Source: Deltaproteobacteria bacterium (lineage in GTDB: Bacteria; Desulfobacterota; Binatia; UBA9968). From it: a DNA stretch of 50,203 bases. Below, piece after piece: positions 13,114 through 32,080 of this stretch. A model generated the notes under the pieces. That model did not search any database. It saw nothing but the letters and a program-made list of their open reading frames with translations, and was not told the DNA's origin. Positions within the stretch are counted from its first letter, which is position 1. Every line of letters starts with the position of its first letter. The stretch is from NCBI GenBank assembly GCA_016183145.1, contig JACPFE010000206.1:1-50203 (forward strand). The letters are read 5' to 3'. A program made the position numbers and the translations under genes.

Positions 13114-13172
13114 ACGAACCTCCTCAAATAAAACGTAGATTTACATTCCCAAACCAACTATTGGATGCAGCA

Positions 13173-13200
13173 AATTTAATCTCGTGGGGCCGATCGTCAA
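13173..13200 (-). promoter_or_regulatory. candidate sigma70-type promoter TTGACG-N16-TAAATT upstream of groES
   Basis: On the minus strand: TTGACG (13195-13200), a 16-nt spacer and TAAATT (13173-13178). No CIRCE inverted repeat seen. Confidence 0.35.
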
Positions 13201-13229
13201 GGGGGGAAGGCGAAAAAAATCAAGGATTA

Positions 13230-16466: not shown

Positions 16467-16540
16467 GCCGATCCCGGCTTGACGCAACCGAATGCTCCAC
16501 CTCCAAAAGGCACAACCACTCCGGCGGCGCACCGCTAGCG

Positions 16541-16578
16541 GATTGCTGTCTAATATTGGACAGCTTTGAAAAGATTTA
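16541..16578 (-). promoter_or_regulatory. conserved palindrome-containing element, copy A (upstream of E1 alpha)
   Basis: Plus strand: GATTGCTGTCTAATATTGGACAGCTTTGAAAAGATTTA. It overlaps the desaturase stop codon. Its near edge is 169 nt from the E1 alpha start. Confidence 0.6.
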
Positions 16579-17514
16579 CCGCGTAGCAAGAGCCGCCAAC
16601 GAGCGAAAACTTATCAGCTTTTGTTGTTTTTCATCGTACAAGGCTAGGCCTAGCGACTTGATGCTCGTTCGGATAGTCACGGGCTTGATTGCGTGAAAGG
16701 CGGGAGTGTCATCGTGGCAGCGTTGCAGGTTGTAATTGGGAATGCTTGGTCGAACATGGTGAATGTGATGCAGTCCGATGTTGCCTGTGAACCATTGCAG
16801 GATTGTCGGCAGCTTGAAATAAGAACTACCCTCCAGCGCCACTTTCATCGGATCCCAAGATTCGTGGCGCGACCAGTAGACGCTCTCAAATTGATGCTGG
16901 ATATAGAACAGCCACAAGCCAAGGCTGGCGCCGATCAATATGACGGGCAACTGAATCAAGAGATAGGTCTGAAAACCGATCGTCAAGCTCGCCGTTCCGA
17001 CAATGACCAAGAGCGCCACGTTGGTGAGGAACACGCTCCGTCGCTCCCTCTTTCCCGCACCCTTGGTAGCAAACCTCTGGAAGAATAAAAACAAAAGTGC
17101 TGCACCCGGACCAAACAAGACAAAGGGATTCCGATAGATCCGGTACACGAGGCGTTTTCGCGGGGGCGCTGCCAAATACTCTGCTGTCGTCATCGTCCAA
17201 ATATCGCCGACTCCCCGACGATCCAGGTCCCCGGCCGTGGCATGATGTAAGTTGTGAGCATGCCTCCAGTCCGCAAACGGTGTGAAAGTCAAAATACCTG
17301 AAACATAGCCCAGGATTGTGTTCGTCCGGCGCGAGGCAAAGAAAGAACCATGACAGCAATCGTGGAAAAGGATAAAAATGCGTACCATGAAGCCTGCCGC
17401 CACCACTGCCAACACCAGTGTGATCCAATAGGGATACTCCTGTTGAACCGTATGGATGCTGAGATCCGAATACGCGTACTTACCGATAGCCTGATACCAA
17501 ACCGGTTTGGACAT
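16576..17514 (-). CDS. membrane fatty-acid desaturase
   Basis: Three His boxes ('HDCCHGS', 'HNLHH', 'HHIHHV') and TM segments. I prefer the start at 'MSKPVWYQ' (17514), because the ORF-track N-terminal extension (to 17706) runs through element copy B. Confidence 0.85.
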   Translation of the reverse strand: MSKPVWYQAIGKYAYSDLSIHTVQQEYPYWITLVLAVVAAGFMVRIFILFHDCCHGSFFASRRTNTILGYVSGILTFTPFADWRHAHNLHHATAGDLDRRGVGDIWTMTTAEYLAAPPRKRLVYRIYRNPFVLFGPGAALLFLFFQRFATKGAGKRERRSVFLTNVALLVIVGTASLTIGFQTYLLIQLPVILIGASLGLWLFYIQHQFESVYWSRHESWDPMKVALEGSSYFKLPTILQWFTGNIGLHHIHHVRPSIPNYNLQRCHDDTPAFHAIKPVTIRTSIKSLGLALYDEKQQKLISFRSLAALATR

Positions 17515-17610
17515 TTTCAGTTTACTAGATCCTGCATCAGCGAGCATTAAGTACCTCGGGAGTGAAAAACCTACGTCGAGAATTGGTTTGACGATATGCC
17601 GACGAAGAAG

Positions 17611-17650
17611 GGATTGTTGTCTAATATTGGACGGTCTTAAAAATAGAATC
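17611..17650 (-). promoter_or_regulatory. conserved palindrome-containing element, copy B (upstream of desaturase)
   Basis: Plus strand: GGATTGTTGTCTAATATTGGACGGTCTTAAAAATAGAATC. 97 nt from the start at 17514. Confidence 0.6.
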
Positions 17651-17911
17651 TTCAGGTTTTTTTGTGTGGCTGACCGCAGATCCGCCAAAGGACGGATCAG
17701 CCACAATTTTCAAGGCTGAGGCGCGTCCCTCGACAGGCTCGGGACGTGGTGAGCCCGCTGAACCACGGAGGACGTGGAGGAAATTGAATGAGGATATCAT
17801 CTTGGGGAAACCCTCGGCGAACTCCGCGCCTCTGTGGTGAATACTTTTCCAGAATAAACCGGAACAACCTAAAAAGAAAGGGCGCGTAGCTCGGCGATGG
17901 GTAGAGCCGCA

Positions 17912-18598
17912 CTAGGCGATCTGAGTCAGATAGTCGGTGAGTTTCTTCTCTTTTATGATGAGAAACCGATCTTCATTCGTCTCGATCAGCCCAAGGTTAT
18001 GAAATCGCTGCATAAATAGACTGACTCGTGGCCGCGTCGTTCCCACCATCTCGGAGAGTTCTTCATGGGAAATCTTCAGCTCGATGCGAATGCTGCGCGG
18101 GTCCGTCTTACCCATGGTGCGGGCCAATTGTAACAGCGTCTGGCCCAGCCGCTGTTCGCTATCCACCGTCACCAGATTGGCGATGACCTGCTGTTGGTCG
18201 GCAATGCGCACCGCCAGGTAGCGCACGAATCCCTCAAACAACGAGTCGCGGCTTAGCCGCGCAAAGAACTGAGCGCAAGGTATTTGTTTCAAGGTCGTTG
18301 CTTTCATCGCCGTCGCCGTTTCCAGCCGTGCGCCCAATCCGGATAAACATAGCTCACCGAAGATGTCTCCCCCGCCATGGATGGCAAGGAGGCACTCCTT
18401 GCCTTCGGAGGAGAGCATGAGCAGTTTGATCTGGCCACTCTCGATGAAGTAGACCATCTCGTCCTGATCGCCGCAGGTGTAGACGTTGGCGTGTCTGGCA
18501 ATCTTGATAGCGCGAGAATTCATGGTCTCGCGCTGCAACGAATCGCGCAATTGCTGTTTGAACTCGTCGGCTTGAGGAGTCTGTTGAATCGTCATCAT
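17912..18598 (-). CDS. Crp/Fnr family transcriptional regulator
   Basis: cNMP-binding-like 'YFIESGQIKLLMLSSEGKECLLAIHGGGDIFGE' and C-terminal HTH 'SHEELSEMVGTTRPRVSLFMQRFHNLGLIE'. The ATG at 18598 is preceded by AAAGGAG. Confidence 0.88.
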   Translation of the reverse strand: MMTIQQTPQADEFKQQLRDSLQRETMNSRAIKIARHANVYTCGDQDEMVYFIESGQIKLLMLSSEGKECLLAIHGGGDIFGELCLSGLGARLETATAMKATTLKQIPCAQFFARLSRDSLFEGFVRYLAVRIADQQQVIANLVTVDSEQRLGQTLLQLARTMGKTDPRSIRIELKISHEELSEMVGTTRPRVSLFMQRFHNLGLIETNEDRFLIIKEKKLTDYLTQIA

Positions 18599-18712
18599 GT
18601 CTCCTTTCGATGCCCACAATGATTATAACAACAGTCTGCTTACTCAGGGGGCTTGGCCGATCGATTATTATTGGCGTCGCAATACCACGACGGCTGAATC
18701 ACTGTTGATATA

Positions 18713-21028
18713 CTATCTTGTTGCCTGGGCTATGTCTACACGCGCGCGGCTCACGGGCAGTTGCTCAGCCCGGGAGCCCGCACGGTAGGTGAAGGCAAAA
18801 GACATGGTGAGGAAAAAGTCCTTAATCAAGCTGGTGGTGAGTTTCCCAAGATCAATGCTCCATATCCTCATACCGCTTAATTGTTCCAGGGTGTTGCCCC
18901 AGAACCGCTGTAGCGGCTCGCGCGAGTAGAGCGCGCGATTGCTCAAGGCGTCAAACTTAGCGTAAACAAGCCAGAATTTTGACGGCAGGCTTTGCTGCAG
19001 ACGTGCGTACACCTGCTGCCATTCCTGAATCCTGCTTCCCAGCCGGATGCTCCCGTGGATACGAACCATCTCATCGACCCATCCGCGGGCAGCCTCCCCC
19101 TCTCGGGTCAGGTGGCGCCGCACTTCCTGCAATCGCGATTGCAGGCCCTCCCATTGTCGCAGAAAGGCATTCAGATCTTTTCGCGCGGTAAGTATCTTTG
19201 CGGAAAGCTCTTCAAAGGGATCCAATAGGGCCTTGGCCTTAGCGGGGAGCGTCGACTTGGCGTCGTTGTAGGCCTTTTGCCACTCTGCGATCTTGAGCGC
19301 CTGCCAAATCTCTCCTTGAATTCGCTGCGCCTCGGCGAGCCATTTTTCTTCTTTTTCGCTCTTGTTGCGCGACTGGAGCCATACCTCTTCCATCTCTTTG
19401 AGAAATTTCGCCCACAGGGCGAAGAGATGGAGGACTTCTTTGGCGCGTTTCCAGAGGTGGACAAGGAGGGAATCCACAGCGAAGCCAGGTCTCCGCAATA
19501 GCCGGTCTTTTAGTCTGAAGAAGCCGGCAATCATCGGGTGCTCTGCCTCGATGAGCGCGGCATTTTTATACCAGAAAAAGATCGACATGAGATTCCAATA
19601 AGCCTTAGGGTTATGGTTCCATCGCGACAAGATCTTGATCATGTTCTCTTTGCTGTAGAAGGATTTCCACGCGTCCTGGTAGGCCTGGAACCACTCCTCC
19701 GCGGTCATGTTGGGATGCTCGATGGTCGCATGGAAGGAGTCGCGCTTGTTGAAATCTGGATCCATCCACTCACCGCGCTTTTTCATCTCGCGGTGATCAT
19801 GGGACCCGGGTAGTGGGGTCAACATAAAAAAGGATGCCTGATCCGGCCCAATGACATCCATGAGATAGCGGATGTCCTGCGGCACTTGCTCTTTGGTGTC
19901 GAAGGGAAGTCCGACAATGTAGCCGGTATGGACAACGATGCCGGCGTCGTGCCACTCGTTAATGATTTCCTGGTACTCTTCGACGTGATTCTGCCCTTTG
20001 CCTTCGGCCTTGAGGTTCTGGGGATTCACGCTCTCCATCCCGATAAAGACCTGGGTACAACCCGCTTCGGCCGAAAGCCGAACGAAATCTTTCGGCTTGC
20101 GCGCGAGATCTACCTGCATCATGAAAGAGATCTTGATGCCCGCTTTCCTTAGCTTGATGATTTCTTCGAAGGTCTCGCGCCAGAGTTTCTTGCGGGCAAA
20201 ATTATCGTCCGTAAAGAAGTAGAAGGAAACTCCGTGTTCGCGATAGTTCCTGCGCAGTAACTCGGCGATACTTTCCGGGCTGCGCTCGCGCATTTTACGG
20301 CCTTGGACGTTTATGATGGTGCAAAAGGAGCAGGTGAAAGGGCACCCCCGGGAGGTATCCGCGGTGCCGAATGAGGGTTTGGCAAAGTGCTGCATGGTCT
20401 TGGGGCTGATTCGGGGGAGCGGCGCATTGCCGATATCGACAAGGCTTTGCAGGTCTTGAGCGAATGAATAAATGGGCTTTAATCGGCCATGGAGCGCGTC
20501 CGCCAGGATCTCCGCCCAGTTCTCCTCGACTTCCCCGGATACGATCGAGATGGATTCCTTACCCAGCTCCTGGATGTCCGGCTCCTGGTCGCTCAGCATG
20601 TTGATGGTGCCGCTGGTGTGGAATCCGCCGATGATCACATCGATCCCAGCGGCGCGGAACTGCCGAGCCAGGTCGAAGGCCCTCGGAAACTGATTGGTTT
20701 GGACTCCCACCAAGCCCACGACAAGCTCGATAGAAGGACGCCGGCTCCAGCGAATGATTTTTTTTACCGGGAGTTTTTCCGCGGTCTCGTCAAAGGTGAC
20801 GATCTCAATTCTAAGATTGCCGAAAACCCGACTGTGCTTCACCTCTTCTGTCAAGCCGTGCAGGACGTTGAGCGTGTTGCTCGGGAGCACACCTTTCCAA
20901 AAGCGAATCACATAGCCGTCATCGTCGTACTTGGAGGGTTTGATCAGAACAATGCGGAATTTCTTAAACGGCAGCTCTGGCGTCGGCTCATTGGTCGCCT
21001 CACGCCCGCTTGTAAATTGGCTTAACAT
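18713..21028 (-). CDS. B12-binding-domain radical SAM protein with long helical C-terminal extension
   Basis: 771 aa. N-terminal Rossmann-like B12-type domain ('VGLVGVQTNQFPRAFDLARQFRAAGIDVIIGGFH'). Radical SAM cluster motif 'CPFTCSFC'. The C-terminal ~300 aa contain two related repeats (I.EWQ..Y...LP.K...F..LS). Confidence 0.85.
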   Translation of the reverse strand: MLSQFTSGREATNEPTPELPFKKFRIVLIKPSKYDDDGYVIRFWKGVLPSNTLNVLHGLTEEVKHSRVFGNLRIEIVTFDETAEKLPVKKIIRWSRRPSIELVVGLVGVQTNQFPRAFDLARQFRAAGIDVIIGGFHTSGTINMLSDQEPDIQELGKESISIVSGEVEENWAEILADALHGRLKPIYSFAQDLQSLVDIGNAPLPRISPKTMQHFAKPSFGTADTSRGCPFTCSFCTIINVQGRKMRERSPESIAELLRRNYREHGVSFYFFTDDNFARKKLWRETFEEIIKLRKAGIKISFMMQVDLARKPKDFVRLSAEAGCTQVFIGMESVNPQNLKAEGKGQNHVEEYQEIINEWHDAGIVVHTGYIVGLPFDTKEQVPQDIRYLMDVIGPDQASFFMLTPLPGSHDHREMKKRGEWMDPDFNKRDSFHATIEHPNMTAEEWFQAYQDAWKSFYSKENMIKILSRWNHNPKAYWNLMSIFFWYKNAALIEAEHPMIAGFFRLKDRLLRRPGFAVDSLLVHLWKRAKEVLHLFALWAKFLKEMEEVWLQSRNKSEKEEKWLAEAQRIQGEIWQALKIAEWQKAYNDAKSTLPAKAKALLDPFEELSAKILTARKDLNAFLRQWEGLQSRLQEVRRHLTREGEAARGWVDEMVRIHGSIRLGSRIQEWQQVYARLQQSLPSKFWLVYAKFDALSNRALYSREPLQRFWGNTLEQLSGMRIWSIDLGKLTTSLIKDFFLTMSFAFTYRAGSRAEQLPVSRARVDIAQATR

Positions 21029-21178
21029 ACCTTTTGCGCCTTCCTAAGATCGAATATACACTATTCCAATGTATAATTTTTTCCACTCCACGAGTAAAGC
21101 CGTATGCCTTAAATAGCGGCGCTTCTGGCTTTGTTGTGAATCCTTGTTTTCTCTTCAAATTCCGCCGTCCCCCTGTTT

Positions 21179-21264
21179 CCTCCCCCCTTGCGGGGGAGGA
21201 CAGAGGTGGGGTATCCCACGACGTTCCTTCCCCCATCCTGACCTTCCCCCGCAAGGGGGGAAGG
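21179..21264. repeat. pair of inverted GC-rich hairpin units (REP/BIME-like)
   Basis: CCTCCCCCCTTGCGGGGGAGG (21179-21199) and CCTTCCCCCGCAAGGGGGGAAGG (21242-21264). The second is nearly the reverse complement of the first. Confidence 0.65.
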
Positions 21265-21482
21265 GAGCCAGAGGCCAACCAAGGCTCGCGGATCTTCATA
21301 AGTTCTAAGATGAACGACGGCCAGGAAAAGCAACATGAGCTTCCCCGGATTGATATATTGAGCGTTTATGTCCTTTTCCTTAAAAGTTTCCTTACTTAGC
21401 TCTTACCGATCCAAGGATGTGTTCCGTGACGAAAACTACCAGGATGGTAGCAGCCGGTGGAGAAAACTTTGGATTACTTTCC

Positions 21483-21511
21483 TTGACAATGGTCCGTCTC
21501 GTCCATAGCTT
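21483..21511 (+). promoter_or_regulatory. candidate sigma70-type promoter TTGACA-N17-TAGCTT upstream of hsp20-lon
   Basis: TTGACA at 21483-21488, a 17-nt spacer and TAGCTT at 21506-21511, about 60 nt before the start codon. Confidence 0.35.
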
Positions 21512-21571
21512 ATCTAGTAGCGCCCCTAATCTCAGCTCAGTGTAGGCAAATGGCATCGAGGCTCAGATAAC

Positions 21572-22003
21572 ATGGCATCGCACGATTGGGATTTCTTGAT
21601 TTGGCGGCGAGCTAACGATCTGCTCCAGCAGGCAGAGCGGATCCACAGGAATTTCTTACAGGTCGCCGCCGGCGCCCCCTATCGTGCATCGCACGGCAGA
21701 ACGCCAAGCTGGGAACCTCCCGTTAACGTCGTCGAGACTGACGAAAGCCTCTGGGTGATTTCGGCCCTCCCTGGAGTGGCAGTTGACCGAATGAACGTAC
21801 GGCTCGAGGGACACGAACTTGTCATCGCCGGCGAACGCCCGCTGCCAAGATGCTGCAGTGAAGGAGAACTGAAGATATGGGAGATCCCGCTCGGCCGTTT
21901 TGAGCGACGACTCACGCTGGTCGGAGGCGAGAATCCTTTATTGCTGGGAGAGATTTCTCTCCAGGATGGGCTACTCATCATCGAGCTAAGGAAACATTCA
22001 TGA
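21572..22003 (+). CDS. Hsp20/alpha-crystallin-like protein, translationally coupled to lon
   Basis: 'PPVNVVETDESLWVISALPGV', 'LVIAGERP' and 'FERRLTLV...ISLQDGLLIIELRK'. Its stop forms an ATGA overlap with the lon start. Confidence 0.78.
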   Translation: MASHDWDFLIWRRANDLLQQAERIHRNFLQVAAGAPYRASHGRTPSWEPPVNVVETDESLWVISALPGVAVDRMNVRLEGHELVIAGERPLPRCCSEGELKIWEIPLGRFERRLTLVGGENPLLLGEISLQDGLLIIELRKHS

Positions 22004-24408
22004 ACGCTGAAGCGACGGAAACCCCTAAATCCAAACCGCGCCTCAATATCCCTGCTGGAGCATTGGTCATCATACCTTTACGCAACCGGGTGCTCTTTCC
22101 CTCCATGATCATGCCGCTCATGGTCCGCCGCCCGGCAAGGCTCCAAGCTGTCGAAGAGGCTGTTCGCCAACAACTGCCGATTGGATTTGTCACCCAACGC
22201 GATCCAAACATAGAAGTTCCACAGCCCAAAGACCTGTACGGAGTCGGCACAGCCGCAGACATTCTACGGATGTTTGCTCTGCCGGACGGTCAGCGTCAGA
22301 TCCTCGTTCAAGGCCGCCGCCGCTTTGAGATCGGCGAATTCCTTGAGACCGATCCCGTCCTCATTGCGCGTGTCACCATGGTGGAAGAACGAATTCCTGA
22401 AACCAAGGAGTTCGAGGCGAGAGTCTTACATCTGCGTCAAGAAGCGGCCAGGGCCTTATCGTTATTCCCTGAACCCATGAACGAACTGAGATCGATGATC
22501 GAAAGGACTGAAGATTCCCTAACCGTAATCGATATGATCGCGTCCACATTGGACCTTCCGTCCGCCGAGAAGCAGGAAATTCTCGCGATCCTCGACCCGG
22601 AGGCGCGCGCCCAAAGGGTTTCGGAAAAATTGGCGCGTCAGATCGAATTGCTGGAACTGAGCAGGAAAATCGGCGATGAAACCAAGGAATCGATGGATAA
22701 GTCCCAGCGCCAATATTTCCTGCGCGAGCAATTGAAGGCCATTCAGAAAGAGCTGGGCGAAGAGGATGGGAAAACCGTTGAAGTTGAAGAGCTGCGAAAG
22801 AAACTTTACGAGGCAAAAATGCCCCCGGATGTTGAGAAGGAAGCGCTCAGGGAACTGAACCGGTTCGAGCGCATTCCTGAGATGGCGGCTGAACACTCGT
22901 TGATCAGGACTTACTTTGACTGGTTGGTGGAACTCCCTTGGAGCATTTTCACCAAGGAAGAGATTGAGCTGCCGAAGGCGCGCGAGATTCTGGACGCCGA
23001 CCATTATGGTCTTGAAAAAGTGAAAAAGCGCATCATTGAATTTCTCGCTGTTCGCAAGCTCATGCCGCAAGGGAAGAGCCCGATCCTGTGCTTCGTCGGT
23101 CCTCCGGGAGTAGGAAAGACCTCTCTCGGACAAAGCATCGCTCGGGCCATGAATCGTAAGTTCGTGCGCCAAAGTCTTGGCGGGGTCCACGATGAGGCGG
23201 ATATTCGCGGTCATCGGCGTACCTATGTCGGGGCATTGCCAGGTAATATTATTCAAGGGATTAGAAAGGCAGGCAGTAGAAACCCCGTCTTCATGTTGGA
23301 TGAAGTCGACAAGCTCAGCGCGAGTTTTCAGGGCAACCCATCCGCTGCGTTGCTGGAGGTCCTCGATCCCTCTCAAAATTCAACCTTTCAAGACCATTAC
23401 CTCGCACTGCCTTTCGATCTAAGCCAGGTTTTGTTCATTGCGACAGCCAACGTGCTCGATACGATTCCGGGCCCGCTTCGTGATCGAATGGAGATCTTGG
23501 AATTGCCAGGATACATCGAGGAAGATAAATTGGCCATTGCCAAGGGATACCTCGTACCTCGGCAAATCGCCGAAAACGGTCTCAAGCCCGGAGAGATTAA
23601 TTTTACCGACAATGCGATTCGGGAAATTATCCGGTCCTACACGCGCGAAGCCGGGGTTCGCCAACTCGAGCGTGAGCTGGGAGCTGTCTGCCGGAGTGTA
23701 GCAACGCGCGTCGCGGAGGGATTTAAAGAGACGATAACCGTCAATCAAGAATCTCTCCCTACGTACTTGGGCCCGCAAAAATTCTTCAACGAGATCGCGC
23801 TGCGCACCAGCTTGCCTGGAGTGGCTACCGGCTTGGCCTGGACGCCGTTTGGCGGAGACATCTTGTTTGTCGAAGCGACCAAGATGCCGGGAGACGGTAA
23901 GTTGCTTTTAACCGGCCAGCTCGGCGATGTGATGAAAGAAAGCGCCCAGGCCGCTTTGAGTCTCGTCAAGTCACGCGCGGACACACTTGGTATCGATCCC
24001 GATACCTTCAGGAAGAACGACCTGCACATCCATATCCCCGCGGGAGCTATCCCAAAGGATGGCCCCAGCGCAGGCATCACGCTCTTCGTCGCTCTCGTTT
24101 CACTGCTTACGGGACGGCGCATCAGCAAGGATGTCGCCATGACGGGCGAGATCAGTCTGCGCGGCTTAGTACTGCCGGTGGGAGGGATCAAAGAAAAAAT
24201 GCTGGCAGCCAAGAGAGCTGGTATTTCCTGCGTCTTACTTCCCGATTTGAATCGCAAAGATTTGGAAGAGATTCCCACCTCGGGCCGCGAGGGCATCCGC
24301 TTTGAGTTTTTGAAAACGGCCGACGAGGCCTTGCGGCTTGCCCTGGAGCCCGAAGCCCCGGGTGGTTTTTCCCCCGGTGAAAGACTCGCGGCTCGTTCGC
24401 TTTCCTGA
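22000..24408 (+). CDS. lon: ATP-dependent protease Lon
   Basis: 802 aa. LON N-domain, 'GPPGVGKTSLGQSIA' Walker A, 'FMLDEVDK', and protease-domain 'PKDGPSAGITLFVALVSL' (catalytic Ser). Confidence 0.98.
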   Translation: MNAEATETPKSKPRLNIPAGALVIIPLRNRVLFPSMIMPLMVRRPARLQAVEEAVRQQLPIGFVTQRDPNIEVPQPKDLYGVGTAADILRMFALPDGQRQILVQGRRRFEIGEFLETDPVLIARVTMVEERIPETKEFEARVLHLRQEAARALSLFPEPMNELRSMIERTEDSLTVIDMIASTLDLPSAEKQEILAILDPEARAQRVSEKLARQIELLELSRKIGDETKESMDKSQRQYFLREQLKAIQKELGEEDGKTVEVEELRKKLYEAKMPPDVEKEALRELNRFERIPEMAAEHSLIRTYFDWLVELPWSIFTKEEIELPKAREILDADHYGLEKVKKRIIEFLAVRKLMPQGKSPILCFVGPPGVGKTSLGQSIARAMNRKFVRQSLGGVHDEADIRGHRRTYVGALPGNIIQGIRKAGSRNPVFMLDEVDKLSASFQGNPSAALLEVLDPSQNSTFQDHYLALPFDLSQVLFIATANVLDTIPGPLRDRMEILELPGYIEEDKLAIAKGYLVPRQIAENGLKPGEINFTDNAIREIIRSYTREAGVRQLERELGAVCRSVATRVAEGFKETITVNQESLPTYLGPQKFFNEIALRTSLPGVATGLAWTPFGGDILFVEATKMPGDGKLLLTGQLGDVMKESAQAALSLVKSRADTLGIDPDTFRKNDLHIHIPAGAIPKDGPSAGITLFVALVSLLTGRRISKDVAMTGEISLRGLVLPVGGIKEKMLAAKRAGISCVLLPDLNRKDLEEIPTSGREGIRFEFLKTADEALRLALEPEAPGGFSPGERLAARSLS

Positions 24409-24445
24409 CAAAGGATCTCGCCATCACCCGTCTGATGCTTTCCTC

Positions 24446-24796
24446 TTAACTTTTCGTTGCCGTTTCATCCTTGGCAAAATATCGCTCGAGGAAAGCGCCC
24501 AGCGGACCGCGCGCCGCCTTTCTCAGAATCCCCTCCAGCTCGCCTTTATCCAGCCAAATCCCTTCACAGCTTTCGCAGCGATCTAAGGCAAAATCCATAA
24601 ACTTATAGCTCTCAAGCTTCCCCGAACACTTTGGACAGTTCACTATCTGTCCTGCCCGCTGGGCCGCTTCAATCTTTTGAAACTCGGCCTTCATCCCCTC
24701 AATCAGTTCGTGCTCTTTCGCGGCAAAATAACTATCTTCATTGGAGCGCTCGTCGAAGTTCAGCTTTTCTCCCGAGCGATCCTTTTCGTTCTCCAT
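24446..24796 (-). CDS. TFIIB-type zinc-ribbon domain protein
   Basis: 'CPKCSGKLESYKFMDFALDRCESCEGIWLDKGELEGIL' (four-Cys ribbon). The ATG at 24796 is preceded by GGAGAG. The ORF track start is 24829. Confidence 0.7.
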   Translation of the reverse strand: MENEKDRSGEKLNFDERSNEDSYFAAKEHELIEGMKAEFQKIEAAQRAGQIVNCPKCSGKLESYKFMDFALDRCESCEGIWLDKGELEGILRKAARGPLGAFLERYFAKDETATKS

Positions 24797-24843
24797 GGTT
24801 TTGCTCTCCTGAATTCTACGGATCAACAACAGCTAACGTGCAA

Positions 24844-26955
24844 TTAGGTGTCGCGTTCGAGGTTCCTCTCATGACTCTCACTCTCCTGTGTGTCTGCGGA
24901 TTTCTTTTTTTCATTTGTTTCCTTGGCGCTGTCGATGCTCCTCACTTTTAGAATCGCTTGCAAAGCGGGTCTGTCGACGACTTCCTTTTCCAGCAGCAGT
25001 TTGGCCAACTCTTCCAGTGCCGCTCGGCGAGAGATTAGTAGATCGCGAGCTCTGGTATGAGAGTCGGTCAGTATTTGTTTTACTTCTTCGTCAATGAGCC
25101 GGGCGGTTTCTTCGCTGTACTCTTTGGGACTGTAAGTGGGCACCATCAGGAACGTGGCGGTCCTGGGCCCTTCGAGAGAGACGAAGCCAAGCTTCTCGCT
25201 CATGCCGAATTGGGTGATCATCGTCCTGGCAATCTCGGTGGCTCGCTGCAAATCGTTCTGAGCGCCGGTTGATATGTCGCCGAAGACAATCTCCTCCGCT
25301 ACTCTTCCTCCAAGAAGGACACAGATCCGCGCCAGTAGTTCGGAACGGGTCATGAGATAACGGTCTTCCGTCGGTAGCTGGCTTGTGTAACCCAAGGCGG
25401 CGACTCCCCTCGGGATAATGGAGATCTTGGAAACGGGATCAGCCCCAGGCACCAGCTCCGCCACCAGCGCGTGACCCGACTCATGATAGGCGACGACCTT
25501 TTTCTCCTTGGGATTGATCACGTGGCTCTTCTTTTGTAGTCCCGCGACCACCCGTTCGATCGCCTCGTCAAATTCCGCCATCTCTATCGACTCCTTGTCC
25601 TGACGCGCCGCCAGCAACGCAGCCTCGTTGACGATGTTGGCGAGATCGGCGCCGACGAAGCCCGGGGTTTTGGCCGCCACGATAGCCAGATCCAAATCAG
25701 CAGAGAGTTTGACCTTCTTCGCGTGCAGCTGGAGGATTTTCGTGCGTCCCTTGATATCGGGACGATCCACCAGAATTTGCCGGTCAAATCGGCCGGGGCG
25801 CAACAGGGCGGCGTCCAAAATCTCCGGCCGGTTGGTGGCGGCCATGATAATGACCCCTTGGTTCGGATCGAACCCATCCATTTCAGCTAACAGCTGATTG
25901 AGGGTTTGTTCCCGCTCGTCGTTGCTCGTGAGCATGCTCACTCCCCTGGCCTTTCCAATCGCATCGAGCTCATCGATGAAGATGATGCTGGGGGCATGCT
26001 TGACTGCTTGCATAAAAAGATCTCTTACCCGCGCCGCTCCGATACCGACAAACATCTCGACAAAATCGGAACCGGTCAGGCTGAAGAATGGCACACCGGC
26101 CTCGCCGGCCACCGCGCGGGCAAGCAGGGTTTTACCCGTACCCGGCGGCCCCACGATCAAAACACCCTTGGGGATACGCCCACCCAATCTTTGATACTTA
26201 TCCGGATCCTTTAGAAATCCGACAACCTCGGCGACCTCTTCCTCGGCTTCGTCGATCCCCGCGACATCGGCGAATGTTACGCCGGTTTTTTTCTCAATGT
26301 AGACTTTCGCCTTGCTCTTGCCAATTTGCATTAAGCCGCCGCCTGCTGACCCCATCTTCTTGCCAATGTAGCTCCACACCAGAAAAAACAGGGCTACTGG
26401 AACCACCCAGGATAAAATGGTCGGTAGCCAAGTACTGGTTACCTCTCCCCGGAACGGTACTCTGGCCTTTTCCAGCTCGGCGGTCAGGCCGGGATCTTCT
26501 ACGCGCACCGCTGCAAACGGGAAAGGTTTTTTGCCTTCGACGATTTCCGGGGGAAGCGTTTTTACTTTCTCCGGCGTGAAAATTTCCTTAACTGCCTCTC
26601 CTTTCATGTTGCCTTCAATAGCTGTCTCGCCGATAGCCACATCAGCGATGAGGCCCTTATTGAGCAGTGACTTGAATTGGCTGTAGTGGATAATCTCGAC
26701 ACGGGTACGGCCATAATAGTTCTGGATCATCAGGATCGTGAAAAATGCGAAGATGAAGTACCAAATGGAAAATTGCCGGTGTTTCTTTTCCATAGGTATC
26801 CTATTCTTCTTTATCGCTTCGTAACTGGTTCGCAGACCGGCGAGGAACCCTTTCCGAGGCTCCGGCTGACCGGCTTCCTCTGGCGTTTTGGCTGTCTGCA
26901 GGATCGACGAGTGCGGGTCTCTCCAGTTTACGAACTTACAAATCGATATTTTCAT
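24844..26955 (-). CDS. ftsH: ATP-dependent zinc metalloprotease FtsH
   Basis: '[23 protein letters not shown]', '[11 protein letters not shown]', SRH '[20 protein letters not shown]' and 'HESGHAL' zinc motif. The start is uncertain: an alternative ATG at 26793 ('[13 protein letters not shown]') lies just before the first TM. Confidence 0.95.
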
Positions 26956-27098
26956 GAATCAGCGGCTTCCTCTTGTCTATTCGAAAAACTATTGTTCTTG
27001 TCAAAGGCCAAATCCCGGCAACCCAAAGGAAAACTTATCTTTTCAACCGCCTCCGGCCTATCTTTGATTTTCCATTTAAACTTACGCCGGCTGGGGAA

Positions 27099-27135
27099 GG
27101 ATTGCTGTCCAATATTGGACCATTAGGAAAGAATT
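27099..27135 (-). promoter_or_regulatory. conserved palindrome-containing element, copy C (upstream of ftsH)
   Basis: Plus strand: GGATTGCTGTCCAATATTGGACCATTAGGAAAGAATT. Perfect 12-bp dyad GTCCAATATTGGAC. 144 nt from the ftsH ORF start at 26955. Confidence 0.6.
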
Positions 27136-27308
27136 GTGGCGCTGTTATAGAAGACCCTGTCAGTGCTCGCATCCACCAACGAATCACAAACCCACGACGT
27201 ACGAAGGTGTGTGAAAAGCCTGCGGATTTGACGGGGCCGGGAGATCTCGGTCAAGTATCGGAAACGGACGTAATTTTCTTCGGCGACGCGATCGGCGCGA
27301 GTAGGCGA

Positions 27309-27707
27309 CTAGACGCGGTCGATCGCCTGTTTGATGGAGTCGAAGTTGAACATCGTGCTCCACGACGCCCCAGCACTTTGCAGGACGGGCGGCGAGTTGT
27401 AAATCGAATCGGTCTTGACGGCCACAAGCTTTTTCTTGAGTTCGACCGCCTTCCGGACTTCCCACGCCACCCAGCCGCTGCGGAAGCTTTCTTTGCCGAC
27501 GATGTACAGGAAGTAACTTGCGTCGCCTATACGCGCGGCGAGTTCCTGTTTGATAGCCGCCGCCCCAGGACTATCGACCGCGATACCGAAGGACTGGTCG
27601 TACGACGAGAAATCGAATTCTTTGTTGGCGTCCCACCCAAGCAGCCGATCCTTGGCAGCCTTGTCATTGTCATACTCGTAGCCGATGAACACTTTATTCG
27701 TAGCCAT
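27309..27707 (-). CDS. TIR-like domain protein (DUF1863/MTH538-type, ThsB-like)
   Basis: 133 aa with 'KVFIGYEYDNDK', 'ASYFLYIVGKESFRSGWVAWEVRKAVELKKKLVAVK', as I recall for stand-alone bacterial TIR-like proteins. I prefer the start 'MATNKVF' at 27707, because the ORF-track extension runs into copy D. Confidence 0.6.
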   Translation of the reverse strand: MATNKVFIGYEYDNDKAAKDRLLGWDANKEFDFSSYDQSFGIAVDSPGAAAIKQELAARIGDASYFLYIVGKESFRSGWVAWEVRKAVELKKKLVAVKTDSIYNSPPVLQSAGASWSTMFNFDSIKQAIDRV

Positions 27708-27808
27708 GCGCTTTTTCCTTTTCGGCGATGAACTAATGGCAAAAGATCTTATAACCGCAGAGTGAAACCCCATGCCTAGAATTGGTCTAACGTTACGCTG
27801 ACTCGAAA

Positions 27809-27848
27809 GGGATTGCTGTCCAATATTGGACAATGTTGAAAAGAACTT
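27809..27848 (-). promoter_or_regulatory. conserved palindrome-containing element, copy D (upstream of TIR-like gene)
   Basis: Plus strand: GGGATTGCTGTCCAATATTGGACAATGTTGAAAAGAACTT. Perfect 16-bp palindrome TGTCCAATATTGGACA. 102 nt from the start at 27707. Confidence 0.6.
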
Positions 27849-27938
27849 TCATTCACCGCGACGATCGATTGCAGTCGCCTCATGTGGTTTTGCGGCACGG
27901 CTATCCCGCCTTTTAGCGGCTCAAGTCCGGTCCCTCGT

Positions 27939-28169
27939 TTAACTTCTCACCATCCATATGAGCTCTTGGAGTCTCAAGCGCATCGGATTGTTCGGATCGG
28001 GGTCCTGAATGTCGTCAATTCGCTTAAACCTTTTCTGTAAGTCGTAGCGCAACATCTGTTTCCTTTGCCCGTAAGCAACGATCGATTGCGAACTGCTCGA
28101 CCAAGTGCGCCCTTTGTCTGCGCTGTAGAGTTTGACACGCTGACCGTAGATCTCGATTTGTTTGATCAT
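27939..28169 (-). CDS. hypothetical protein (76 aa)
   Basis: ORF only. Its start overlaps the stop of the upstream small ORF by 4 nt. No recognisable motif. Confidence 0.4.
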   Translation of the reverse strand: MIKQIEIYGQRVKLYSADKGRTWSSSSQSIVAYGQRKQMLRYDLQKRFKRIDDIQDPDPNNPMRLRLQELIWMVRS

Positions 28170-28444
28170 GGCATTCTCCTAACCCTTGGTAAGGGTTTGT
28201 TGCGACGTGATCGTGCATGTCGCAAGCGAATTGCCGTGCGAGGTTCGGCATCGTCTGGAGTCGGCCGGTTAGGAGTAGAATGACGAGGATAAACAGCACC
28301 ACCGCGGCGAAGACCGAGGGACCGCAGCCAAACGAGTGATAACCCCAGCGGGGCAGACACTAGCCCGAGAACGATGAGAGCGATACCAATGAGCATTATC
28401 TGATTGATACGCATAAGGGCTCCTTCCTTCGTTTTGAAGCCCAT
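28166..28444 (-). CDS. hypothetical small membrane protein (frame uncertain)
   Basis: One clear TM ('IMLIGIALIVLGLVSAPLGLSLVWL') followed by a Pro/Arg-rich tail. A competing ORF in another frame (28024-28302) makes the call weak. Confidence 0.3.
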   Translation of the reverse strand: MGFKTKEGALMRINQIMLIGIALIVLGLVSAPLGLSLVWLRSLGLRRGGAVYPRHSTPNRPTPDDAEPRTAIRLRHARSRRNKPLPRVRRMP

Positions 28445-28552
28445 ATGGCTACCAGTATTAAGAGGTTTAAGTCAGGCTTACTTGAAGACATTCAAATAAC
28501 CTCAGGAGTAAAACCCCACCCCAAAGTGCTTTAACAGTATACCGGCTCGGCA

Positions 28553-28592
28553 GGGATTTCTGTCTAATATTGGACGATTTTGAAAGGAATTA
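28553..28592 (-). promoter_or_regulatory. conserved palindrome-containing element, copy E (divergent region between small ORF and dnaJ)
   Basis: Plus strand: GGGATTTCTGTCTAATATTGGACGATTTTGAAAGGAATTA. 109 nt from the start at 28444 and about 150 nt upstream of the dnaJ ATG on the other strand. Confidence 0.6.
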
Positions 28593-28706
28593 TCGCGCGG
28601 CCCGTACGGCCACGCGGAATCGCTCTCCTCGACCCCTGTGCATGGCTTGCGTCCGTAAACGCCCAGGACTTGCTAAGATCTATGAAAAGTCGGTGGATTT
28701 TTCCTC

Positions 28707-28734
28707 TTGCAACTCTCCACTTCGGCGCTATTCT
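28707..28734 (+). promoter_or_regulatory. candidate promoter TTGCAA-N16-TATTCT immediately upstream of dnaJ (possibly leaderless mRNA)
   Basis: The -10-like TATTCT ends 9 nt before the dnaJ ATG (28744). There is no Shine-Dalgarno sequence between them. Confidence 0.3.
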
Positions 28735-28743
28735 ACCCTGACA

Positions 28744-29865
28744 ATGGCAGAAGGCGATTACTACCAGATCCTCGGCGTCGATCGCGGCGCCTCCCACGAA
28801 GAGATCCGCAAGGCGTACCGCAAGCTCGCGCGCAAGTATCACCCGGACCTCAACCCGGGAAATAAGGAAGCCGAAACTAAATTCAAAGATATCTCGGTCG
28901 CCCACGATATCCTGAGCGATCCGGCAAAGCGCAAACTCTACGACGAGTTCGGCGAGGCGGGACTCGCGGCCGGTTTCGACGCCGAAAAGACGCGCAGCTA
29001 CCAACAGTGGCAGCAGCAGTCGGCGCGGGCGGGCGGCGCTTACGAATTCAACATGGACGATCTCGGCGATCTCTTCGGCGATCTGGGTGGTTTCTCCACG
29101 GCAGGCGCTAGAACGCGACCGGGTCCGGCGCCCGGTCAGGATATCGAAGCGTCGATGGACATCGATTTTCTCGACGCCGTGCGCGGCTTTCAGACGTCAA
29201 TAACGCTTCAGCGGCCCGTCCAATGCGATACCTGTCATGGCGCCGGAACCAAACCGGGAACAAAGCCGACCGCGTGCCCCGACTGCCACGGCACCGGCAG
29301 CAAGTCGGTGAGTCAGGGACCGCTACAATTTCGCCGCACCTGCCCGCGCTGCATAGGAAGCGGGCAGTTACCGGGAGAACCCTGCGGTGTGTGCCGGGGC
29401 ACGGGCCGGGTGGTGCGCACCGAGACGATTCGCGTCAATATCCCACCCGGGGCCGAGCCGGGAAAGCGGATTCGCCTGCGCGGAAAAGGCGAGGCGGGTG
29501 TACGCGGTGGGCCAGCGGGAGACTTGTACATTGCTCCGCGCATCCGGCCGCACCCGTTTCTCACGCGCTCAGGCAAGGATGTATCCATGGAGCTGCCGAT
29601 CACGGTTGGCGAGGCGGTGCGTGGCACCATGGTCGAGGTTCCCACGCCGGTCGGAACGATCAAAGTCAAGATTCCGGCGGGCGCGCAGAGCGGCCAGCGC
29701 CTGCGCGTCAAAGGCAAGGGAGTTGCCGCCCACGGGCAAAGCCCGGCCGGAGATTTCTATCTGCGGCTCATGGTTCGCGTGCCGAAGGAAAGAGTCGCGC
29801 ACGATGTCATCGAGAAAATCGACCAGGCCTACGGCGAAGACGTGCGCAAAGACGTGCGGCTGTAG
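28744..29865 (+). CDS. dnaJ: molecular chaperone DnaJ (type I, with zinc-finger domain)
   Basis: J-domain '[35 protein letters not shown]', G/F-rich linker and four CxxCxGxG repeats ('CDTCHGAG', 'CPDCHGTG', 'CPRCIGSG', 'CGVCRGTG'). The ORF-track upstream extension (28570) is implausible. Confidence 0.95.
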
Positions 29866-29880
29866 CAGGGGAGGCGAGCG

Positions 29881-30174
29881 ATGCCCCGAAAGTTTCTGCG
29901 CATTACCGAGGTCGTTAAGATTTGCGGCGTTGACGAGGAATTCGTCATCCGCTTGGAAAGGGAGAAGGTGATTTACCCGATCGTCCGGCGCAGCCGGAAA
30001 CTTTACCCCTTGGATCAGGTCGATCGCGTGCGCGTGGCCCGCCTGCTCATCGAAGAAATGGGAGTGAATCTGGAAGGCGCCGAGGTCGCGCTCCACATGC
30101 GCGACCAGATGATCGCGATGCAGCGCCAGTTCAACGAACTCTTGCGCCTGCTCGGCCGGGAGTTGAAGAGATAG
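29881..30174 (+). CDS. MerR-family HTH protein (HspR/CbpM-like chaperone-linked regulator)
   Basis: 97 aa with 'LRITEVVKICGVDEEFVIRLEREKVI' (MerR-type HTH), directly downstream of dnaJ. Confidence 0.75.
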   Translation: MPRKFLRITEVVKICGVDEEFVIRLEREKVIYPIVRRSRKLYPLDQVDRVRVARLLIEEMGVNLEGAEVALHMRDQMIAMQRQFNELLRLLGRELKR

Positions 30175-30201
30175 GAGAAACGATCTGAACGGCATTGAAA
30201 G

Positions 30202-30420
30202 CTAGGGATTGTCATCAATCCATGCTTTCGCCATCTCGGTCATAAACCTTTCCGCATCCTGCCAATTTTCGAACTGAACTAGCGGTCCGGTTATCGTGTG
30301 CGATTCTCGCAGACCGTCGGTTCTCCAACTGACGTCAGCCATAGGAATCCAAAATGCAGTGGCTTCGTCGAAGCGTGCGAAGTTGACGATGGAGCGATCT
30401 TTGTAGAGCAAGTTGGCCAT
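30202..30420 (-). CDS. hypothetical protein (72 aa)
   Basis: ORF only. Confidence 0.4.
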   Translation of the reverse strand: MANLLYKDRSIVNFARFDEATAFWIPMADVSWRTDGLRESHTITGPLVQFENWQDAERFMTEMAKAWIDDNP

Positions 30421-30591
30421 ACGGAAACCTCCCTGTTCGGGCTTCCGGTCCCGCTGACCCGGGTCTTAAGCTCGGACAAAATTCTAAGTTACTCCTTCGC
30501 AATCTCCAGATTCAGGCATTGCAATCTTGGCAATCGTTCCCGAATCACCGACTTAAGGCTGACGCCACTTCTCCTTGACGCCAAAAACCGG

Positions 30592-30960
30592 TTATCTTCT
30601 TCTTCCCTGCGGGCGTCTAAAGAAGGACGGCTTGGATTCGTCCTTCGCGCCTCCGGACTGTTTCAGCATCTTCGCAACCCTTTTCCCCATGACATCCACG
30701 ACGTAGTTGGATAGCAAATGGTCGCGCGTGCTCTTGATCTTTTGCCGCACCGCATTCTTGCGCACGGCATCTTGCCCGGCCACTAGCAAATCGCCGGTCA
30801 AAAGAGAAACGGTTCCTTCTCGCCCGCGTGATGACAGCCGAAGAGAGAATCTCCCTTCTTGAGTCTGGTCCATTAAGCTGTACTCAAGCTTTTTATCGAT
30901 GCTGCGGATAATCCCTCTTAATAGCTCTGCGGTCTGTTTGACCATTTGACGTTCAATCAT
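30592..30960 (-). CDS. hypothetical protein (122 aa)
   Basis: The ATG at 30960 is preceded by GGGAGG. No recognisable motif. Confidence 0.5.
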   Translation of the reverse strand: MIERQMVKQTAELLRGIIRSIDKKLEYSLMDQTQEGRFSLRLSSRGREGTVSLLTGDLLVAGQDAVRKNAVRQKIKSTRDHLLSNYVVDVMGKRVAKMLKQSGGAKDESKPSFFRRPQGRRR

Positions 30961-31140
30961 GGAACCTCCCTTGGTTTCGGCCCGATAAGAGGCTTCCAAG
31001 GTTGGCGAATTCCTCGGGGCCTAAAAAAACTTGGAGAAAGAATATCTCTGTCCCGGTGTGCCCGACAGAGAGCGAACGCTAGTATCGCGGAAGTGGAGCC
31101 CTATTCCCGGTGAATCGGCGTCAAGCCGGTTCGTTGGTGG

Positions 31141-31172
31141 AAAAAAGAGGGGCAACCCGACCGATTGCCCCC
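31141..31172 (-). terminator. rho-independent terminator after RRM-protein gene
   Basis: On the minus strand: GGGGCAA-tcggtcggg-TTGCCCC followed by TCTTTTTT. Confidence 0.7.
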
Positions 31173-31199
31173 CTGGTGACTAGCTAACTAACGGAAAGA

Positions 31200-31502
31200 C
31201 TACCAGCGATTGCGGCCGCCGTCGCGTCCGCCGCCCCCGCCGTTATCGCGCCGCGCCATAGGCTTGGCTTCATTCACGGTCAGGGTGCGCCCGTCGAGCT
31301 GGGTGCCGTTTAGCGACTCGATGGCTTTTTTGGCCTCGTTGCTCGAACTCATCTCCACGAAGCCGAAGCCCCGCGACTGTCCGGTAAACTTATCCGAGAT
31401 CACGTTGGCCGATTCGACCGTCCCGTGCGCTGAAAAAATTTCCTGCAGTTTCCCTTCGGTTACTGAATAAGGGAGACCGCCAACATATAACTTATTACCC
31501 AT
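31200..31502 (-). CDS. RRM-type RNA-binding protein with Gly/Arg-rich tail
   Basis: RNP2 'KLYVGGL', RNP1 'RGFGFVEM' and C-terminal 'RRDNGGGGGRDGGRNRW'. Confidence 0.92.
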   Translation of the reverse strand: MGNKLYVGGLPYSVTEGKLQEIFSAHGTVESANVISDKFTGQSRGFGFVEMSSSNEAKKAIESLNGTQLDGRTLTVNEAKPMARRDNGGGGGRDGGRNRW

Positions 31503-31931
31503 GTTCTCCTCCTATGAGAGAATGTTTGTGTCTTTGACCCTGAGAATTGGACTGCTAATAGGGCAGAACATGGGAAACTTGATTTCGAAAACCACGCTCT
31601 GGTCGGATTGTCCTTTAGGTATCGTTCGCAAGGAGAGACGGATTAGAGGCCTTCAACGCTTGTGTCATCCTCTTTCAGAAGGCCTTTTACTGAAGTAGGA
31701 ATTTCACTCTACGTGTTAATAGGGATGCTGTCAACCACCAGCGCGCTTTATTTTTTGCGGCGATTCCGTGGAGCCCGACAGGCAAGCCCGTGGTACCTTC
31801 CGGTACGGTCGTGGGGCGAAATCCTGGGCAAGAGCCCCAGGCCCAAGGCCGGGGCTCGCGTCGAAGGGTCGATATCTCGACTCTGTAACTATGGGAAGGA
31901 ACAGGACTATCCTCGGGTTTGCCTGCCCGGC

Positions 31932-31972
31932 AATAATACTTTTCAAAATTGTTCAATATTAGACAGCAATTG
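31932..31972 (+). promoter_or_regulatory. conserved palindrome-containing element, copy F (inverted; upstream of 32081 ORF)
   Basis: Plus strand: AATAATACTTTTCAAAATTGTTCAATATTAGACAGCAATTG, which is the reverse complement of the orientation of copies A-E. 109 nt from the start at 32081. Confidence 0.55.
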
Positions 31973-32080
31973 TCGCCGAGTCGGCGCAGCATGAAGAGCG
32001 AAAGACCCCGCTCTGGATTTGTCAGTGGTGGGGGGAATTAAACCAGCGTGTTCCAAACTCAAATTTAACGGGGGTGTCTC

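Follow-up and report, generated by a model that had tools for sequence, protein, structure and literature searches.

A conserved promoter module of about 62 bp and its probable Crp/Fnr-family activator in Binatia, Acidobacteriota and Chloroflexota

The contig JACPFE010000206.1 (assembly GCA_016183145.1; 50,203 nucleotides, the whole stretch being referred to below as the window) from a Deltaproteobacteria bacterium of the Binatia lineage carried six copies of a conserved AT-rich element built on the 14-bp dyad GTYCAATATTRGAC. These six repeats were most likely complete promoters in need of an activator of the CRP/FNR type, the gene of which belonged to the same cluster. Namely, we gave a probability of about 0.7 to class II activation, at complete promoters of approximately 62 bp, by the linked Crp/Fnr-family transcription factor (TF; positions 17912-18598 on the minus strand). 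A dimer of this protein would bind the dyad, which would have its centre approximately 41.5 bp before the transcription start, where it would stand in for the -35 element. The bound factor would then recruit RNA polymerase with a sigma-70-type factor to a TAnnnT -10 hexamer beginning 22 nt past the dyad. The AT-rich tract ATAATTCTTTTCAA (about -66 to -52), at the place occupied by the alpha C-terminal domain in class II promoters, would probably be an UP-like element, and the GC-rich block would be a spacer that separates the -35 zone from the -10. Such promoters would drive membrane, lipid, proteostasis and stress genes, such as ftsH, desaturases, NfeD, MlaE, CsbD and many small membrane proteins.

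The repeated element and its promoter architecture

A first-pass annotation of the same DNA had listed six copies of an orientation-locked element, and pattern search recovered all of them: TGTCCAATATTGGACA with up to two mismatches occurred six times in the window and in none of 100 dinucleotide-preserving shuffles. The 16-mer dyads were located at 16547-16562, 17618-17633, 27106-27121, 27817-27832, 28561-28576 and 31950-31965, and a seventh copy was not found in the window with looser half-site patterns and a 64-nt position weight matrix (PWM). In their forward reading, five of the copies were on the minus strand and the sixth was on the plus strand. All six aimed at the next gene, as had been annotated: E1 alpha, a desaturase, ftsH, a ThsB/TIR-like gene, a small membrane open reading frame (ORF) and an ORF of 115 aa. 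The two copies said to lie in divergent intergenic regions (sites 5 and 6) did so, which excluded a terminator. Read toward the nearest gene, the six copies shared the string cTTTTCAAnnt-GTYCAATATTRGAC-AgcAATCC followed by a GC-rich block, which was seen as CCGAGYCRGCG and was weaker, as described earlier. The AT-rich core stood in GC-rich surroundings, with a GC content of 0.31 just upstream of the dyad and of 0.57 in the flanks.

Related sites were gathered in two samples, whose loci were named L001 and so on. The motif-anchored sample came from an exact-pattern scan with GTYCAATATTRGACARMAAT of one genome per species, for which approximately 17 chance matches were estimated. It returned 76 loci, approximately 62 of which were from Acidobacteriota and from metagenome-assembled genomes (MAGs) labelled Candidatus Binatia or 'uncultured delta proteobacterium'; the rest were one Caldilineaceae MAG and roughly a dozen apparently random loci. 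Seventy unique non-random sites, from loci of 8 kb, formed the set used for promoter anatomy. The TF-anchored sample consisted of 80 metagenome loci gathered via the TF protein, from which every dyad with at most one mismatch, judged on the 14-mer alone, was taken, giving 85 contexts. Since the pattern of the motif scan had a fixed ARMAAT, the TF-anchored sample served as an independent repeat. With the PWM, the motif-anchored loci gave 113 sites and the TF-anchored ones 101, often two to four per 8 kb. Counting from the G of GTYC in the dyad as offset 0, sites with the full architecture (-10 at offset 36) were also present on contigs of MAGs labelled Clostridia and Heliomicrobium (L011, L060, L025), meaning that either the system was wider than three phyla or these contigs were mis-binned.

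In the 70 motif-anchored sites, information content was high at offsets -18 to +43 and then fell to background, and the 85 TF-anchored contexts gave the same profile. Conservation of approximately 62 bp was a property of about 190 related sites in other genomes, and it ended just after a TAnnnT/nAnnnT hexamer. This hexamer had been missed in the first-pass annotation, where the conserved span was put at 55-60 bp. The 14-bp dyad was near-invariant in 186 sites. The outermost T and A of the 16-mer were only weakly conserved, so the core was the 14-mer. Within it, position 3 in the distal half was T in 25% of the sites and position 11 in the proximal half was A in 63%; the preferred half-sites were TTAGAC (63%) on the proximal side and GTCCAA on the distal side. 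The earlier statement that the variable dyad position was always in the same half-site did not hold, as site 6 varied in both halves.

Upstream of the dyad was the AT-rich tract ATAATTCTTTTCAA. On the downstream side, AGnAAY CC came first and the GC-rich stretch cCCGAGTCaGCg next. These were followed by T36 A37 n n n T41, the TAnnnT/nAnnnT hexamer beginning 22 nt after the 14-bp dyad. A match to nAnnnT starting at offsets 35-37 was present in 58 of the 70 motif-anchored sites, against a background of 3.7/70 per offset (approximately 5%), and a match to TAnnnT in 39 (background 0.6/70 per offset). These counts were replicated in the TF-anchored contexts, with nAnnnT in 67/85 and TAnnnT in 61/85. 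The hexamer immediately after the dyad was AGAAAC, AGCAAT, AGCAAC or AGTAAT in the 85 TF-anchored contexts, 74 of which had G as its second base and 44 of which had C as its sixth. AGnAAY was not a -10 element, because the G and the frequent C stood in place of the two defining bases. The -35 zone read cAGnAA in the TF-anchored sites, with AGCAAT in the place of a -35, and none of the six window elements was called as a sigma-70 consensus promoter. If the TAnnnT hexamer occupies -12 to -7, the dyad centre would therefore fall at about -41.5, over the -35 region and not in a spacer. Thus, the earlier idea of a whole promoter with an embedded operator stood as far as an orientation-locked promoter with a dyad for a dimeric regulator was concerned, and its assignment of TTCAAA and AGCAAT as the two hexamers was abandoned.

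From the 16-bp site to position 2 of the predicted -10 there were 22 bp, a spacing described in a review on CRP as exclusive to class II promoters (PMC10187061). Similarly, NtcA sites of the form GTAN8TAC are centred at -41.5 (PMC3898017). The element had the features by which class II promoters are recognised, namely a two-fold site of 14-16 bp, a centre near -41.5 relative to the predicted -10 and a weak or absent -35. Among the 166 sites that could be evaluated with crude ORF calling, 126 were intergenic and 116 had a co-oriented ORF start no more than 400 nt downstream.

In the window, module 1 (16518-16579, minus strand; dyad 16548-16561, AT-rich tract 16566-16579) was located upstream of the E1 alpha gene (start 16372). 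It was the weakest copy (PWM score 49.9), with GCCGGA (16520-16525), and no -10-like hexamer, at the canonical offset. As its AT-rich tract and dyad were kept, this copy may have decayed from a promoter, may be purely a binding site, or may work with another -10. Module 2 (17589-17650, minus strand) was upstream of the fatty-acid desaturase gene (start 17514) and 279 nt downstream of the stop codon of the Crp/Fnr regulator gene, with the dyad at 17619-17632, the -10 TATCGT at 17591-17596 and a predicted transcription start site (TSS) at approximately 17584. Module 3 (27077-27138, minus strand) was upstream of ftsH (start 26955; dyad 27107-27120, -10 TAAGTT 27079-27084, predicted TSS ~27072), and module 4 (27788-27849, minus strand), with a perfect dyad at 27818-27831, was upstream of the ThsB/TIR-like gene (start 27707; -10 TAACGT 27790-27795, predicted TSS ~27783). 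Module 5 (28532-28593, minus strand; dyad 28562-28575, -10 TACTGT/TATACT 28534-28540, predicted TSS ~28527) diverged from dnaJ and preceded the small membrane ORFs 28166-28444 and 27939-28169. The true start of its target was likely the ATG at approximately 28414, which had the ribosome-binding site GGAAGGAG. Finally, module 6 (31933-31994, plus strand; dyad 31951-31964, -10 CAGCAT 31987-31992, predicted TSS ~31999) diverged from the gene of an RRM protein and was upstream of the 115-aa membrane ORF (32081-32428), an orthologue of which was downstream of the motif in nine loci.

The linked Crp/Fnr-family protein and its recognition helix

The proposed cognate regulator was a protein of 228 aa in the NCBI gene call, whose start was seven codons downstream of the longest-ORF start. 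It combined a cNMP-binding-like domain (PF00027, 2.9e-12) with an HTH_Crp_2 domain (PF13545, 2.2e-14), which placed it in the CRP/FNR superfamily, and it matched the PDB structures of GlxR, Mtb CRP, CooA and NtcA, with CRP-family matches up to an E-value of 2.6e-20. None of the curated NCBIfam subfamily cutoffs (CRP, FNR, NtcA, PtrA, LdrP, FixK, YeiL) was reached, the best being 62 bits against the 266 required for CRP. Homologs of the TF at E<=1e-20 fell into more than 4,500 protein clusters (90% identity grouping), and many of them were more than 90% identical to the query.

The gene lay between sites 2 and 3, and the first-pass annotation had made no connection between it and the element. 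ORF clustering of the motif-anchored loci gave the Crp/Fnr family as the commonest gene family, with full genes in 10 loci and fragments in three more, of approximately 62. In 11 of 12 cases the gene was not downstream of a site. A site following the TF stop codon was the typical layout, seen in the window (279 nt), in L054, L046, L023 and L026, in L077 from Acidobacteriota and in L040 from Chloroflexota. The reciprocal test gave the same linkage: at least one site was present in 65 of the 80 TF-anchored metagenome loci, it was located 42-121 nt past the TF stop codon in 31 of 72 loci (the commonest distance being 51 nt), and 97 of the 101 TF-anchored sites were co-oriented with the TF gene. 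A few TF-anchored loci had a site upstream of the TF gene, so that autoregulation was allowed.

In several loci, fragments of TF genes were found just upstream of sites (L026 391-676, L043 163-258, L035 2073-2198 and L023 6559-6900), which suggested that the unit of TF and site was duplicated and that the TF copy then decayed. A sigma-70-like TAGACA-N17-TAGTAT was located at 18710-18738 on the minus strand, just upstream of the TF gene and inside the end of the radical-SAM gene. It gave only a hint of a constitutive promoter of the TF's own, as the scan was overall at chance level.

For the DNA-binding domain, the closest protein in PDB was CooA-1 of C. hydrogenoformans (2fmy, E 8e-11), the next match being at 2.5e-6. 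The two recognition helices were similar (GTTRPRVS in the TF and GTTRQTVS in CooA-1), and the helix MVGTTRPR[IV]S was invariant from Binatia to Chloroflexota; in the window protein it read MVGTTRPRVS. The CooA consensus site is TGTC-N8-GACA (PMC7306483), and its outer bases fitted the dyad when written as TGTC-CAATATTG-GACA.

The paired change of helix and dyad in Chloroflexota was the strongest indication, from sequence comparison, that the Crp/Fnr protein may read the dyad. Five TFs with the helix TTR[PQ]R[IV][SC] (L040, L166, L162, L168, L169) had the canonical dyad 25-130 nt past the TF stop codon, on the same scaffold. Two paralogs with the helix [AT]SR[PS]RVSTYMHHF (L160, L164) had the dyad GTTCCAWWTGGRAC at the same place and on the same promoter scaffold, and no canonical dyad was found within 10 kb on either side of them. 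The individual variant dyads were GTTCCATTTGGGAC and GTTCCAAATGGAAC, respectively, followed 22 nt later by CATACT and TATATA. The change was symmetric, from A5 to C and from T10 to G, whereas the canonical A5/T10 pair was present in 177 of the 186 sites. In Chloroflexota there were several TF paralogs per genome, each with a dyad promoter of its own behind it and with unrelated genes next (L162, L164, L160, L166, L168, L169), such as those for peptidase S8, a PatG-like protein, SDR, beta-lactamase and a pectate-lyase-like protein. L162 and L164 were located on one Caldilineaceae contig of 14.3 Mb. The Chloroflexota system looked like a set of local regulators and not like one global regulon.

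The element appeared to work like the class II promoters of NtcA, CRP and CooA, and it was outside any characterised subfamily. As in NtcA class II promoters, it had a 14-bp site for a dimer (3-4 specific, 6-8 central and 3-4 specific bases), a TAnnnT -10 at the same distance, no -35, and one scaffold shared by a large regulon (PMC3898017). In contrast to NtcA, the dyad GTYCAATATTRGAC had an invariant AT-rich centre, the TF scored 56 bits against the NtcA cutoff of 245, the regulon was of membrane and stress genes rather than nitrogen genes, a partner like PipX is not known for the TF, and the AT-rich tract and the GC-rich spacer were much more conserved. With E. coli CRP class II promoters it shared the 16-bp 5-6-5 dyad, the 22 bp to the second -10 base, a -35 that is weak or missing, and an AT-rich stretch upstream of the activator at the place of the alpha C-terminal domain (PMC10187061). 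It differed from E. coli CRP in the half-site (TGTCC and not TGTGA), in the score of 62 bits against 266 and in a non-canonical phosphate-binding cassette. CooA, the carbon monoxide (CO)-sensing activator of the CRP/FNR family, was the closest in its solved DNA-binding domain and had identical outer site bases (PMC7306483). The likeness ended with that domain: unlike CooA, the sensor part of the TF kept the FGEL motif of cNMP-type domains, and neither CO dehydrogenase (cooS) nor hydrogenase genes were among the regulon genes. At the putative positions of the CooA heme ligands the sensor read FGELCL, and neither the heme ligands nor a CO regulon that would mark a member of the CooA subfamily were apparent. 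A search of the literature for the dyad sequence and for a Crp regulon in Binatota or Acidobacteria returned nothing relevant, so the dyad and its regulon were undescribed in the searchable literature.

Weighing the activator against other explanations

Several points weighed against activation at a simple class II promoter. First, the centre at -41.5 depended on the predicted -10, because the transcription start was itself placed by prediction. Second, site 1 of the window, upstream of E1 alpha, was without a -10-like hexamer at the expected offset. Third, the AT-rich tract, AGnAAY CC and the GC-rich spacer were conserved beyond what class II activation needs, and another factor, for instance the linked paralog of CarD/CdnL, may read these extra parts. 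Additionally, the paired change of helix and dyad was based on two variant loci, and a factor over the -35 region could equally repress. Finally, the phosphate-binding cassette of the TF had R-L where cAMP-binding CRPs have R-S/T, so that the cassette did not point to a ligand.

The CarD/CdnL-like RNA-polymerase-binding protein was encoded at 44209-44703 on the minus strand, 12 kb from the nearest site in the window, and its membership in the system was tentative. CarD/CdnL was the second most motif-linked family, found in 10 of approximately 62 motif-anchored loci and in 11 of the 80 TF-anchored ones (L010, L017, L028, L032, L039, L046, L049, L054, L074, L085, L104, L107, L108, L122-L124, L131). 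Its gene was often directly upstream of the TF gene or within site-driven operons, and it also adjoined two sites in the MAG labelled Clostridia (L011). We also put forward, tentatively, a bolder scheme that we regarded as rather unlikely in its entirety. In Binatia and Acidobacteriota, according to this scheme, general stress and membrane homeostasis would be under the Crp/Fnr protein as master activator, in the role played elsewhere by RpoS, SigB or EcfG, and the unusually rigid 62-bp promoter, with its AT-rich tract and GC-rich spacer, would be read by added dedicated components, notably the CarD/CdnL paralog. In Chloroflexota, the cassette of TF and promoter would have multiplied into paralogs that switched their base-5 specificity and became local regulators.

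The main rival, improbable in our estimate, was a repressible unit made of the same promoter and TF. Basal activity would then come from the UP-like tract together with the -10, and the polymerase would be kept out by the dimer, bound from -49 to -34, until a signal released it. The dyad did overlap the -35 zone, its proximal half-site TAGACA resembled TTGACA, a strong AT-rich tract could replace a -35, and the direction of regulation in the activator model was itself a deduction. However, the distance from the dyad to the -10 was almost invariant (offset 36 +/- 1 in approximately 80% of sites, in three phyla), and this disfavoured repression because the face-of-helix contacts of an activator need a fixed spacing and occlusion does not. 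Moreover, there was no usable -35: TAGACA of the proximal half-site was rejected in this role, as it would leave a spacer of 21 bp, and no sigma-70 consensus promoter was called. In this family, proteins that bind at -41.5 are mostly activators (PMC10187061, PMC3898017).

A promoter for an alternative sigma factor of the extracytoplasmic function (ECF) type was far less probable than repression. In such a promoter, G/AAAC or GCAAY would be the -35 and CGTA the -10, and the dyad would be incidental or serve as an operator of its own. The resemblance was to the 'AAC' of ECF -35 elements, as in AGAAAC and AGCAAC, and to the 'CGT' of their -10, as in gCGTA, the ECF consensus being that of SigW/SigM-type promoters. 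The distance from AAY to CGTA was 14 nt and not the 16-17 of ECF promoters, and tblastn found no RpoE/SigW-like gene in approximately 0.9 Mb of motif- and TF-anchored loci. The near-perfect 14-bp dyad, changing along with a Crp-family recognition helix, was also left without explanation. A sigma-54 promoter was rejected by inspection, since the GG/GC spacing did not fit.

Even smaller was the chance we gave to the layout of the first-pass annotation, with TTCAAA as -35, AGCAAT as -10 and the dyad as an operator in the spacer for a MerR-like regulator or a repressor, so that the GC-rich block and TAnnnT would belong to a transcribed leader. The 17-bp spacing fitted this layout, and both hexamers were conserved in the six window copies; for a promoter of the MerR type, the spacing would be 19-20 bp. 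On the other hand, the putative -10 had the G at position 2 and the frequent C at position 6 described above (74/85 and 44/85 of the TF-anchored contexts), and conservation ran 24 nt further to end at a well-formed TAnnnT. TTCAAA itself was rejected as a -35, as it belonged to the upstream AT-rich tract. For the MerR-family gene of the window (MerR_2, after dnaJ), linkage to the motif recurred in just one of approximately 62 loci, and neither an HspR-associated inverted repeat (HAIR) nor a controlling inverted repeat of chaperone expression (CIRCE) was found; an HspR/MerR regulator was therefore rejected. The zinc-ribbon protein was also rejected as a regulator, being always the operon partner of ftsH and present in three loci only.

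Least probable of all was a dispersed repeat (like repetitive extragenic palindromes or miniature inverted-repeat transposable elements, or a mobile promoter cassette) or a structured RNA or DNA hairpin without a regulator: the element was multi-copy, clustered (2-4 per 8 kb) and palindromic in its core, but it had no inverted pairs or terminal repeats, single copies were oriented to genes, the 62-bp architecture was kept in three phyla with unrelated flanks, changes at symmetric dyad positions were not compensatory (C.A 109, T.G 46, T.A 1), so that a hairpin was not the conserved thing, and the whole window had no Rfam covariance-model match at the gathering score. The signs by which the first-pass annotation would have recognised such a repeat, namely random orientation, frequent intragenic copies or inverted pairs, were not seen, with 97/101 sites co-oriented with the TF gene and 126/166 intergenic.

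Target genes and biological meaning

In the window, site 1 preceded the gene of the 2-oxoacid dehydrogenase E1 alpha subunit (15392-16372, minus strand), followed by E1 beta (14560-15399), and site 2 preceded the fatty-acid desaturase gene (16576-17514, minus strand), whose family was the commonest first gene after a site. The ftsH operon (24446-26955, minus strand) consisted of ftsH (24844-26955) and the gene of the zinc-ribbon protein (24446-24829), and the same pair followed sites elsewhere. The ThsB/TIR-like protein (27309-27707, minus strand) was the target of site 4, and the 115-aa membrane protein without a Pfam family (32081-32428, plus strand) was the target of site 6 and a recurrent first gene. 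Counted over 179 sites, the first genes encoded a desaturase (15), an unannotated protein of 141 aa (14), a protein of 106 aa without a Pfam match (13), the 115-aa membrane ORF (13), a YflT-like protein (10), a membrane protein of 185 aa (8), FtsH (6) and a GAF hybrid kinase (6). Further first-gene families were NfeD, MlaE, an ABC permease, CsbD, response-regulator receivers and a second desaturase type. Thus, the target set looked like a membrane-lipid, proteostasis and general-stress regulon. It may be compared with the general-stress regulons of SigB, RpoS and EcfG and with the CRP-family stress regulator SdrP from Thermus. Similar to those regulons, the targets were rich in CsbD, YflT-like and small membrane stress proteins and in proteases; in contrast to SigB, RpoS and EcfG, control would be by a CRP-family activator and not by an alternative sigma factor. 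The similarity of the TF to SdrP (2zcw) was weak (E 4e-6).

The window neighbourhood also contained hsp20-lon, dnaJ with the MerR_2 gene, the RRM protein, a B12/radical-SAM enzyme and the Crp/Fnr regulator. The regions upstream of the heat-shock genes hsp20-lon, dnaJ-merR-like and groES-groEL (21400-21575, 28590-28760 and 13114-13235, respectively) were without the dyad, CIRCE or HAIR, and all three had an upstream hexamer of the CCTTGAC/CTTGCA type. For these reasons, control of the heat-shock genes seemed to be separate. The E1 beta ORF (14560-15399, minus strand) had 279 aa, as compared with 342 aa on a metagenome contig with an identical E1 alpha (L001), and only the first 49 positions of its C-terminal domain matched, which may be due to a frameshift or an assembly error.

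Part of the regulon had a conserved leader box, GGCaTGGGGTTTCACTCC, approximately 10-20 nt past the predicted start site. It was present in the window at 17540-17575, 27745-27775 and 28490-28520 on the minus strand and in L009, L018, L026, L039, L042, L043 and L074. In one subgroup the whole leader of approximately 100 nt was conserved, ..GGTTAyCTGAAATTCTTCAAGTAAGCCTG..TTAACCCTC..AGGAGG. The consensus fold of six such sequences had 16 pairs, none of them covarying, and the leader had no Rfam match. This conserved leader could be a second cis-regulatory layer.

To our knowledge, cultures of Binatia and of most soil Acidobacteriota are lacking or difficult to obtain, and hardly anything has been learned about how these bacteria control transcription. 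The promoter module and its proposed activator offer a concrete, testable triplet of regulator, operator and regulon for them: a highly conserved TF, its proposed 14-bp site, and a promoter with start sites that would be predictable to a few bases. Dozens of unannotated small membrane proteins gain a common regulatory context in this way. The helix variant with its symmetric base-5 change would be a natural specificity switch for studies of DNA readout by CRP/FNR proteins, and the promoter could, if its signal is found, be turned into an inducible module that is portable. Thus, the six repeats of the window pointed to a membrane and stress regulon that would be common to uncultured soil bacteria of the Binatia, Acidobacteriota and Chloroflexota.

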